From contig NZ_WJIE01000009.1 in the NCBI RefSeq assembly GCF_009649845.1, positions 160,685-224,684 on the forward strand: DNA of 64,000 bases, in the 5' to 3' direction. Source of the stretch: Polyangium spumosum. GTDB lineage: Bacteria; Myxococcota_A; Polyangia; Polyangiales; Polyangiaceae. Of the stretch, positions 51,633 through 53,383 are shown in pieces. The notes below the pieces were generated by a model, which was not told where the DNA came from, did no database searches, and worked only from the letters and a program-made list of their open reading frames with translations. The first letter of the stretch is position 1. Each line of letters starts with the position of its first letter. The translations under genes and the position numbers were made by a program.

Positions 51633-52295
51633 GTGACTCGCGTTATGCTCCCCGGCCCCGTGGAACGTTCGATCGGCGTGTATGGCGAGGAGCTGCTCCT
51701 CTGGATCTGCGCGGTGCGCCAGTCTCCGAGGCGTCCGCCCGCGGAGCACCTGCTCCAGACGGCGAACTCCCTGATGAACGAGCTGAAGAGCTCGAAGGCG
51801 TCCGAGGCGCTGCCCGTCGTCTCCGCCGACGATGGGCAGTTCGCCATCGCCGCGATCATCGACGAGATCGCCATGAGCCTGCCGGACCTGCGTCCGCTCT
51901 GGTCGCAATACTCGCTCCAGGCGACGCGCTGGTACACGACGAACGCGGGCGTCGAGTTCTACCAGCGCCTCGAGCGCGTGAAGGAGGGCCCGAAGAGCGT
52001 GCTCGCCACGTACTACGTGGTGCTCGGGCTCGGCTTCATGGGCAAGTTCGGGCTTCCCGGGCAGGTGCAATACGGCGCGACGCAGACCCGCATCGACGTC
52101 GCGCGGGCCCTCGGCGTGGACGCCGATCGCGACTGGCACGCGGGCGCGCTCCGGCCCGTGCGCGAGGAGACGGTGCGCCCGATCGACCACCAGACGCCCT
52201 GGTGGAAATCGCTCTGGATGAGCCGCGGGATCGGGATCTTCTTCGTGGTCGTGGGCCTCGTCCTGGTCCTCGTCTCGCTGCTCGGGGGCAAGTGA
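51633..52295 (+). CDS. DotU/TssL-like protein (cytoplasmic domain plus a single C-terminal TM)
   Basis: [16 protein letters not shown] matches the DotU/TssL L.LGF.G.Y signature, recalled from memory. A single [22 protein letters not shown] lies at the C-terminus. Length 220 aa. Confidence 0.55.
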
Positions 52296-53383
52296 TGGCG
52301 AACGAGACCGGCCCGTTCACGCAGGAGATCGACGCGCTGCTCGCGGCGATCGCGCAGAAGCACCCGACCAAGAAGGCGCCGTACCAGGTGCCGATCTACC
52401 TCGTCGTTGGTGATCCGGGCACGGGGCGATCGACGGCGATCCGCTCGCAGTTCCTCACGTGGTCCTCGGGCGACGGGCCCCTGCCGCCCGCGTCGACCAC
52501 GCCGTTCTGCACGTACTGGATGGCCGACGAGTGCGTGTTCATCGAGCCCGAAGGTCACGTGATGGGCCCGCGCCGCGATCCGGCCCTGCTCGAGGCGCTC
52601 TGCAAGGAGCTCCTGCGCAAGCGCCCGCGCGAGCCGCTCGACGCGCTCATCCTCGTCCTGAACGTCGCGGCCTTCGCCGACATGGACGAGGAGGGCGTGA
52701 AGGCGTACGCGAAGAACTACCGCGACATGCTCGTGGAGATCGGCGTGCACCTCGCCGGCGACGTGCCCACGTACGTCATCCTCACGCGCTTCGACACGGT
52801 CTGGGGCTTCGCCGACGTCTTCCAGTGGACGCCCGAGCGCAAGCGCGAAGATCCCTGGGGCTTCACGCTCCACCAGGAGGTCGCGCCGCAGGACGCGCTG
52901 CCGAAGATCCGCGAGGAGCTCGACGGGCTCGGCGCGCGTATCGAGATGTTCTGCTTCGCCAAGCTCTCGGGCGAGGAGCCCGTCGAGACGCGCATCCGCG
53001 CCTACCAGCACCTCGTGGAGGTGCGCGAGCTGCTCGATCGGCTGCGTGTCCTCTTCGGCGTGCTCGCGATGCCAAACGCCTACGAGCGCGTGCCGTGGTT
53101 CCGCGCGCTCGCGATCGGCAGCGCGGTCCCCGGCGTCGGCGACCGGCAACGCGCGGGCGTCGCGCGTTTCCAGAGCATGGGCCTCTACCCGGCGCAGATG
53201 CCCCAGGGCATGCGGCCGGGCGGGCTGCCGATCCACGCGCTCGTCAAGACCGTCACCTTGCCCGAGAAGGAGCTCGTCCCGCTGCGGGTGCGCTGGCGGG
53301 ACGACCTCGCGACCTTGATCCTCGCCGGCTCGGCGGTGCTCGTGTGGATCGCCGCGATCATCGTCGCGGGCGTGAACCGCTAG
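52295..53383 (+). CDS. IcmF/TssM N-terminal NTPase-like protein (P-loop plus a C-terminal TM) lacking the periplasmic domain
   Basis: TGATG coupling to the DotU-like gene. QVPIYLVVGDPGTGRSTAIRSQFLTW parallels the TssM Walker A region LPWYLVIGxPGxGKTTLLxNSGL. C-terminal TM LILAGSAVLVWIAAIIVAGV. Confidence 0.5.
   Translation: MANETGPFTQEIDALLAAIAQKHPTKKAPYQVPIYLVVGDPGTGRSTAIRSQFLTWSSGDGPLPPASTTPFCTYWMADECVFIEPEGHVMGPRRDPALLEALCKELLRKRPREPLDALILVLNVAAFADMDEEGVKAYAKNYRDMLVEIGVHLAGDVPTYVILTRFDTVWGFADVFQWTPERKREDPWGFTLHQEVAPQDALPKIREELDGLGARIEMFCFAKLSGEEPVETRIRAYQHLVEVRELLDRLRVLFGVLAMPNAYERVPWFRALAIGSAVPGVGDRQRAGVARFQSMGLYPAQMPQGMRPGGLPIHALVKTVTLPEKELVPLRVRWRDDLATLILAGSAVLVWIAAIIVAGVNR

Follow-up and report, generated by a model that had tools for sequence, protein, structure and literature searches.

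The question raised by a 64,000-nucleotide stretch of the Polyangium spumosum genome (contig NZ_WJIE01000009.1, positions 160,685 to 224,684; hereafter the window, with ~70% G+C across its length) is what two overlapping genes for secretion-system membrane proteins are doing apart from any secretion system. The first (gene A) encodes a DotU/TssL-like protein and the second (gene B) a truncated TssM/IcmF protein. As a rule, TssL and TssM are studied solely as components of the envelope channel in type VI secretion systems (T6SS). An earlier note, made from the DNA letters alone, had proposed that the pair is a minimal TssL-TssM core that has been repurposed. We find that the operon is real, conserved, translationally coupled, restricted to one bacterial family and unlinked to secretion genes, and that its nucleotide pocket is altered. 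The reading that we favour, with moderate confidence for the whole of it, is that of an intact two-gene operon that is descended from tssL and tssM of the T6SS membrane complex and whose products form a docking platform at the inner membrane. The features of the pair, in coordinates of the window, are as follows.

51633 (GTG) or 51645 (ATG) to 52295, plus strand: gene A, a tail-anchored DotU/TssL-like protein, recognised by Pfam DotU.
52227 to 52283, plus strand: C-terminal membrane anchor of gene A, residues 195-213 of 216, from Kyte-Doolittle hydropathy.
52292 to 52297, plus strand: overlap of the dotU stop and the gene B start (GTGATG), read from the sequence.
52295 to 53383, plus strand: gene B, a truncated TssM/IcmF paralogue, recognised by PF14331, with a G-domain-like module, a helical domain and one C-terminal transmembrane (TM) segment.
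52409 to 52432, plus strand: remodelled P-loop of gene B, GDPGTGRS, residues 39-46, with Arg replacing the Walker A Lys.
52532 to 52555, plus strand: remodelled Walker B/G3 motif of gene B, CVFIEPEG, residues 80-87 (hhhhDTAGR in canonical TssM).
52784 to 52795, plus strand: remodelled G4 motif of gene B, TRFD, residues 164-167 (TKxD in canonical TssM).
53318 to 53374, plus strand: C-terminal membrane anchor of gene B, residues 342-360, from hydropathy; equivalent to TM3 of TssM.

Gene A encodes 216-220 residues, depending on whether the ATG at 51645 or the GTG at 51633 is taken as the start. It matches the Pfam DotU family (PF09850) over positions 8-194 of the 205 in the profile, scoring 86.5 bits where the cut-off is 27 (E=2.5e-24), and carries the DotU/TssL hallmark motif on which the earlier note had based its family assignment. 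A Kyte-Doolittle scan with a 19-residue window finds a single hydrophobic segment (residues 195-213, score 2.99) with 3 residues after it, so that the protein has one C-terminal TM anchor following a cytoplasmic domain, as is found in the DotU/TssL family, and the assignment is borne out. The best solved relative is the cytoplasmic domain of TssL from enteroaggregative Escherichia coli (EAEC; 3u66, E=7e-4). The NCBIfam models stay below their naming cut-offs, with 80 against 89.95 bits for TIGR03349 (IV_VI_DotU) and 46 against 180 bits for NF038239 (TssL short form). At the junction with gene B the sequence reads GTGATGG, the ATG of gene B at 52295 overlapping the TGA of gene A; an alternative GTG start for gene B is present at 52292. 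The overlapping stop and start codons imply, as far as sequence can tell, that translation of the two genes is coupled. The same TGATG had been read in this way in the earlier note, and the overlap is one of 4 nt in 59 of 72 loci, the rest ranging from a 1-nt overlap to an 18-nt gap.

Gene B encodes 362 residues and contains YLVVGDPGTGRSTAIRSQFL. It matches the Pfam family IcmF-related_N (PF14331) with 142.4 bits against a cut-off of 25 (E=2e-41, profile positions 3-257 of 259), and only positions 96-446 of the 1168 in the TssM model TIGR03348 are aligned, with 140 bits against a cut-off of 388; these matches confirm the proposal that the second protein corresponds to the cytoplasmic module of TssM/IcmF. 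One hydrophobic segment is present, at residues 342-360, with 2 residues after it. It coincides with a helix at residues 338-361 in the AlphaFold2 (AF2) model, and in the alignment it falls on the TM ahead of the periplasmic domain in canonical TssM. Gene B was correctly described as ending after one TM and having no periplasmic domain (the region of ~700 residues comprising PF06761 and PF06744), and what had been overlooked is that the N-terminal TM1-TM2 hairpin has been lost as well. A fold search identifies the predicted structure of gene B as a G domain, with a TRAFAC-class GTPase fold. No solved structure of a TssM cytoplasmic domain was found by sequence or fold search.

Set beside the T6SS proteins themselves (ImpK and ImpL of Agrobacterium tumefaciens, SciP and SciS of EAEC), the pair shares with TssL the DotU domain and the tail-anchored topology, and with TssM the cytoplasmic G-domain-like module, the helical domain and TM3; the order of the genes and the coupling between them are also those of tssL-tssM. 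The differences are the absence from gene B of the TM hairpin and of PF06761 and PF06744, the altered Walker A, Walker B and NKxD motifs, the absence of a TssJ with the pair and of linked T6SS genes, and scores that do not reach the NCBIfam TssM and TssL cut-offs. Databases nevertheless label the homologues of gene B 'VasK/ImpL/TssM', and homology-based T6SS surveys of myxobacteria can be inflated by these labels.

TssM proteins carry three NTPase motifs, Walker A GxxxxGKT, Walker B hhhhDxxG and (N/T)KxD (PMC3346141). All three are changed in gene B, where they read GDPGTGRS, VFIEPEG and TRFD. The position of the Walker A Lys is occupied by Arg in 117 of 119 metagenomic family members, and across 74 species-level sequences by Arg in 57, Lys in 15, Gln in 1 and Ala in 1. 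The Walker B Asp is replaced by Glu in 73 of the 74, and the Lys of NKxD is kept in none of them (Arg 65, Gly 5, Ala 3, Glu 1). In contrast, almost all of the canonical TssMs recovered by our search of representative sequences retain GxxxxGK[ST]. The earlier note had called this an NTPase module on the strength of its Walker A region; the G-domain fold stands, but with all three motifs altered an active NTPase cannot be assumed, and hydrolysis by gene B, or an NTPase cycle that drives secretion, appears unlikely. The glycine-rich loop hardly varies within the main clade (G39, P41, G42 and G44), which argues that the pocket has been remodelled and not abandoned, and it may still bind some ligand, as in a pseudo-GTPase. 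In the most divergent member (P0129, 32% identity, from locus L073) the P-loop is absent altogether. Gene B differs from the TRAFAC small GTPases and pseudo-GTPases (Rag, Roc, septin, EngB and MglA) in its replaced G1, G3 and G4 residues, in being membrane-anchored and in having the TssM-specific helical domain. There is a precedent for TssM-family function without the canonical motif in the T6SSii of Francisella, where PdpB, the IcmF homologue that accompanies DotU, is said to lack Walker A; unlike gene B, PdpB is full-length, envelope-spanning and encoded in a complete secretion island. The interaction between TssM and TssL is independent of ATP binding or hydrolysis (PMC3346141), so formation of a complex between A and B stays plausible with an altered pocket.

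The short form of TssM proved to be a family in its own right. A word-indexed search with gene B gave 183 homologues; nearly all of those listed have 340-420 residues, one being a 265-residue fragment, all but one of them carry PF14331 alone, and the named ones all come from Polyangiaceae. Family members are uniform in length, at about 355-400 residues. When 1.84 billion cluster representatives were scanned exhaustively with HMMER, only 10 proteins came out at E<1e-30, and beyond a gap in the ranking came canonical TssMs, mostly of about 1000-1200 residues, at 25-30% identity. This gap argues that the short form is a discrete clade. In a neighbour-joining tree it lies on its own long branch and is not nested in the canonical TssMs. 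An origin within the myxobacterial TssMs was considered, as the TssM of Enhygromyxa is among the closest-scoring canonical ones, but the tree does not nest the short family there.

In a distribution scan of one genome per GTDB species, gene B was present in 65 loci, one per assembly, from Polyangium, Sorangium, Minicystis, Byssovorax, Chondromyces, metagenome-assembled genomes (MAGs) of Polyangiaceae and three unclassified myxobacterial MAGs, and among the cultured genera returned none was without the pair. On these searches the operon is specific to the myxobacterial family Polyangiaceae and is single-copy. The window copy is 94% identical to that of Polyangium jinanense. A DotU gene lies directly upstream of gene B in 72 of 72 loci, all complete loci have intact, full-length open reading frames (ORFs) at 43-94% identity, and 47 alignment columns are invariant across 108 sequences of the gene B family. 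The ratio of nonsynonymous to synonymous substitution rates (dN/dS), estimated by the Nei-Gojobori method against Polyangium relatives, was 0.07-0.23 for gene B, 0.10-0.29 for gene A, 0.07-0.22 for the neighbouring enolase gene and 0.20-0.56 for a neighbouring DsbA-like gene. By this measure the pair is under purifying selection at a level comparable with that on enolase.

These values bear on the possibility, which the earlier note had itself raised as the alternative to its proposal, that the pair is a decaying duplicate or a non-functional T6SS relic. Such an origin would account for a gene that is shortened relative to TssM and altered in its catalytic motifs. It does not sit with ORFs that remain intact across the range of identity, with the uniform length and the invariant columns, or with dN/dS values of 0.07-0.29 for the two genes together with a conserved coupling. 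The conservation data effectively refute decay, and we regard a relic as scarcely credible.

No member of the TssA-K, Hcp, VgrG, ClpV or Dot/Icm families was found in 42 of the 49 predicted genes of the window (all of at least about 290 residues), seven short genes lying outside the scan. The claim that no secretion-system genes surround the pair thus extends, for the 42 scanned genes, across the 64 kb. Eight related contigs of Polyangiaceae type with Pfam annotation likewise showed no T6SS gene among the genes called on them, and the pair stands alone both here and in all 72 related loci examined. Models specific to the type IVB secretion system (T4BSS) show negligible sequence match to the pair, with 31.5 bits against a cut-off of 1000 for IcmF_IVB and 13.3 against 50 for IcmH_DotU_IVB, and there are no dot/icm genes nearby.

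In the docking-platform reading, A and B would be made in a fixed ratio by way of their overlapping stop and start codons, be inserted into the membrane post-translationally as tail-anchored proteins, and assemble through the known cytoplasmic TssL-TssM interaction on the inner face of the inner membrane. The resulting platform would recruit or position other proteins, and would be neither a channel or conduit nor a motor. Both the complex and its scaffold role are what we infer. Since all the periplasm-crossing parts of TssM and the TM hairpin are gone, the pair cannot form a trans-envelope channel, and since the tail anchors leave only 2-3 residues outside the membrane, it cannot itself reach periplasmic domains. 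The earlier description of a repurposed minimal TssL-TssM core is fair to this extent: the family assignments hold, the pair stands alone and it is under purifying selection. The words 'inner-membrane core' need correction, as both proteins are tail-anchored with no reach into the periplasm. The candidate clients, in order of preference, are a T6SS elsewhere in the genome, the Zn-ribbon/propeller proteins encoded nearby, and something tied to enolase.

A TssL/TssM-type pair that works outside a T6SS is known from Legionella, where DotU and IcmF find their own way to the cell poles and direct the Dot/Icm T4BSS to these sites (10.1101/315721). It likewise serves as an inner-membrane anchoring or positioning module. 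Legionella IcmF, unlike gene B, still has the parts that span the membrane and lie in the periplasm, and its gene is located with the dot/icm genes. We put forward tentatively, as a bolder and distinctly less secure proposal, that the TssL-TssM module has once more been recruited to another use, as happened with the Dot/Icm T4BSS: the ancestor of the Polyangiaceae would have kept the cytoplasmic halves, with the G domain turned into a pseudo-GTPase, as a T6SS-independent, housekeeping-like platform, perhaps organising the Zn-ribbon/propeller proteins or a process tied to enolase. If the docking-platform reading is true, the cytoplasmic interface of TssL and TssM would be a membrane-docking module open to reuse, and the Legionella proteins point the same way. 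The pair is also a natural minimal construct for study of the TssM cytoplasmic domain. Its parts are familiar; their reduced, remodelled, stand-alone and family-wide configuration is not. We found no description in the searchable literature of an orphan or truncated TssL/TssM pair, nor one under PF14331 or 'TssM-like', and a term search of a 2026 review of T6SS accessory factors gave no such pair.

Several points weigh against a repurposed platform of this kind. The species that keep the Walker A Lys, 15 of the 74, form a deep MAG clade, and in some P-loop NTPases a Glu can take the role of the Walker B acid; gene B may therefore still bind or hydrolyse nucleotide to some residual extent. T6SS genes have moreover been reported in many Polyangia genomes (PMC11509652; PMC10196010; PMC11821767), those of Polyangiales and Polyangiaceae included, and the pair could be an ordinary unlinked accessory of a T6SS, not repurposed at all. 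As such it would dock on, regulate or compete at the baseplate or the TssL-TssM interface of a canonical T6SS, either as an extra docking site or as a phospho-regulated decoy. To our knowledge, the established roles of TssL and TssM cytoplasmic domains all lie within a T6SS or T4BSS, which counts in favour of this explanation. We consider it possible but rather unlikely, given that no T6SS gene was seen among the scanned genes of the window or on the eight annotated contigs, and that T6SS content is patchy among Polyangiaceae MAGs of ~92% completeness (1/16 versus 15/16 of the M. xanthus T6SS genes; PMC11821767 Table S2) whereas the pair is in every cultured genus returned. A search seeded with the Enhygromyxa TssM gave, among its top 120 matches, only Nannocystaceae, Myxococcales and unnamed MAGs, with no named Polyangiaceae TssM.

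A short pair that does lie within a T6SS was found in Candidatus Thiothrix (locus L076, positions 1-21125, JAYMYJ010000093.1). This complete T6SS cluster has two TssL/TssM sets, the first a short DotU (231 residues) with a TssM_N-only protein (374 residues) and the second a DotU-OmpA protein with a full-length TssM; it also holds three Ser/Thr kinases, PP2C, Fha, TagF, TssK and ClpV. The short set has the same layout as the Polyangiaceae pair, a DotU gene of ~230 residues followed by an overlapping gene of ~370 residues whose product ends after one TM, and it is clearly a T6SS accessory. Short pairs can therefore be T6SS accessories, and this favours the same role for the pair in Polyangium. 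Unlike the Polyangiaceae form, however, the Thiothrix short form keeps all of the NTPase motifs (GxxxxGKT, DTAG and TKxD), and in the neighbour-joining tree it branches with canonical TssMs, away from the Polyangiaceae family. This separation argues for independent truncation, such pairs having arisen at least twice.

For the clients of such a docking platform, the genes around the pair offer candidates. Neighbouring genes were called by codon-position G+C, which in the window also served to tell real genes from shadow ORFs, grouped by all-against-all BLASTP clustering and mapped by tblastn and hidden Markov models. The features on either side of the pair in the window are as follows.

50269 to 51576, minus strand: enolase gene, Pfam Enolase_N and Enolase_C (E=1e-116), divergent from the pair.
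51577 to 51644, no strand: divergent eno-dotU intergenic spacer, 56-68 bp in the window depending on the dotU start.
53380 to 54261, minus strand: DsbA/thioredoxin-like putative lipoprotein, Pfam Thioredoxin_4 and DSBA, convergent with gene B.
54080 to 55819, plus strand: ZP1, a bitopic protein with a Zn ribbon (CxxC...CxxC motif), one TM and a beta-propeller (weak YNCE/YVTN matches); its start is uncertain, between 54080 and 54296.
55804 to 57198, plus strand: ZP2, a paralogue of ZP1, with Zn ribbon, TM, linker and beta-propeller.

The neighbours are those that the earlier note had listed, namely enolase, a DsbA-like protein and two Zn-ribbon/propeller proteins, except that enolase is divergent on the minus strand and not co-directional with the pair. 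That note had suggested that the pair is a scaffold for the adjacent propeller proteins. Spelled out, the pair would make up the cytoplasmic half of an envelope system, ZP1 and ZP2 would provide the periplasmic half in trans, and their cytoplasmic Zn ribbons would bind the TssL/TssM_N platform. In the AF2 model of ZP2 (pLDDT, the predicted local distance difference test, 83) a Zn ribbon (residues 1-30) precedes a TM (40-56), a disordered linker and a 7-bladed-type beta-propeller (105-460), and the predicted topology puts the ribbon in the cytoplasm, as a plausible contact point, and the propeller in the periplasm. The named homologues of ZP2 come from Polyangium, Sorangium and Minicystis only, all of them Polyangiaceae, which is the same family-restricted distribution as that of the pair. 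In the most divergent locus, L073, ZP1 and ZP2 directly follow the pair on the same strand, in the order eno, dotU, gene B, ZP1, ZP2 with nothing in between, and the four-gene neighbourhood may therefore be ancestral. Elsewhere the comparative support is weak and mixed. In 14 of 57 loci the two genes are within 5 kb downstream on the same strand, as they are in Polyangium and Chondromyces, at one Byssovorax locus out of three and in several MAGs; counting any position up to 10 kb away gives 20 of 45. In Sorangium they lie ~9-10 kb upstream on the other strand, and in Polyangium the convergent DsbA gene intervenes, so that they are not in one operon with the pair there. The propeller is also generic, a Foldseek search with the ZP2 model giving only WD40/YVTN propellers. 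ZP1 and ZP2 are candidate clients of the pair, but a partnership of the kind proposed seems to us doubtful.

The conserved neighbour is enolase, which the earlier note had passed over in this respect. It is head-to-head with dotU in 49 of the 54 loci that have at least 2.5 kb of upstream DNA, and no other neighbour is conserved. The spacer measures 22-340 bp in 64 of 68 loci, and the arrangement is kept in L073, where gene B has only 32% identity; the enolase of that locus (7953-9458, minus strand) was called at 501 residues, ~70 longer than the others. These observations would fit a platform that is co-regulated with enolase, or one that tethers or positions enolase or an enolase-containing complex at the inner membrane. 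The adjacency may equally be that of an ancestral insertion site kept by a shared promoter region beside an essential gene, the two genes are separated by insertions of 0.5-9 kb in four lineages, and our literature searches surfaced no interaction of enolase with TssL or TssM. A function linked to enolase is on balance highly improbable. Both promoters presumably lie within the spacer at 51577 to 51644. No sigma-70 or terminator consensus was found in a scan of 51.3-53.7 kb that included this spacer, and an Rfam scan of 48-58 kb gave no RNA element.

On the downstream side, gene B and the DsbA-like gene meet tail-to-tail, their stops sharing 4 nt (CTAG, 53380-53383), with no terminator-like hairpin between these convergent genes. 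A DsbA-like gene lies within 3 kb downstream in only 16 of 57 loci, has a higher dN/dS than the pair and is probably not part of the system. The gene that follows gene B varies by lineage, encoding a kinase-STAND protein of ~1850 residues, an M14 carboxypeptidase, a DUF362 protein, or a Zn-ribbon or Phage_lysozyme2 protein. The ~1850-residue protein comes immediately after the pair in Sorangium cellulosum So ce56 (L032, 11133-18025) and ten other Sorangium loci; it has Ser/Thr kinase, AAA_16 STAND, GAF, PAS and HWE histidine kinase domains, and is followed by a response regulator and an HSP20 protein. A downstream effector/immunity island was rejected, the next gene being variable and the Pfam matches showing no toxin/immunity pattern. 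An anti-phage defence system was rejected as well, since the PADLOC models gave no match for gene A, gene B, the DsbA-like protein, ZP1 or ZP2.

Elsewhere in the window, a low-complexity Ala/Thr-rich ORF of 224 residues between Usp and enolase (49563-50237, minus strand) has no family match and is probably not a gene, judging by its poor codon-position signal. The sole Pfam match of a protein of 1247 residues (34669-38412, minus strand) is to a Dictyostelium CTDC repeat and stays below threshold, with 25.7 bits where the cut-off is 27. Two large STAND/NACHT-like NTPases are encoded at 7792-11238 (minus strand) and 30351-32948 (plus strand), the second with an N-terminal helix-turn-helix domain. 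A MoxR-type AAA ATPase (15867-16892, plus strand) is encoded apart from a BatA/VWA protein pair of 663 and 1039 residues (38510-43617, plus strand), and this BatA/VWA pair is also found upstream of the enolase region in two related loci, L003 and L007.

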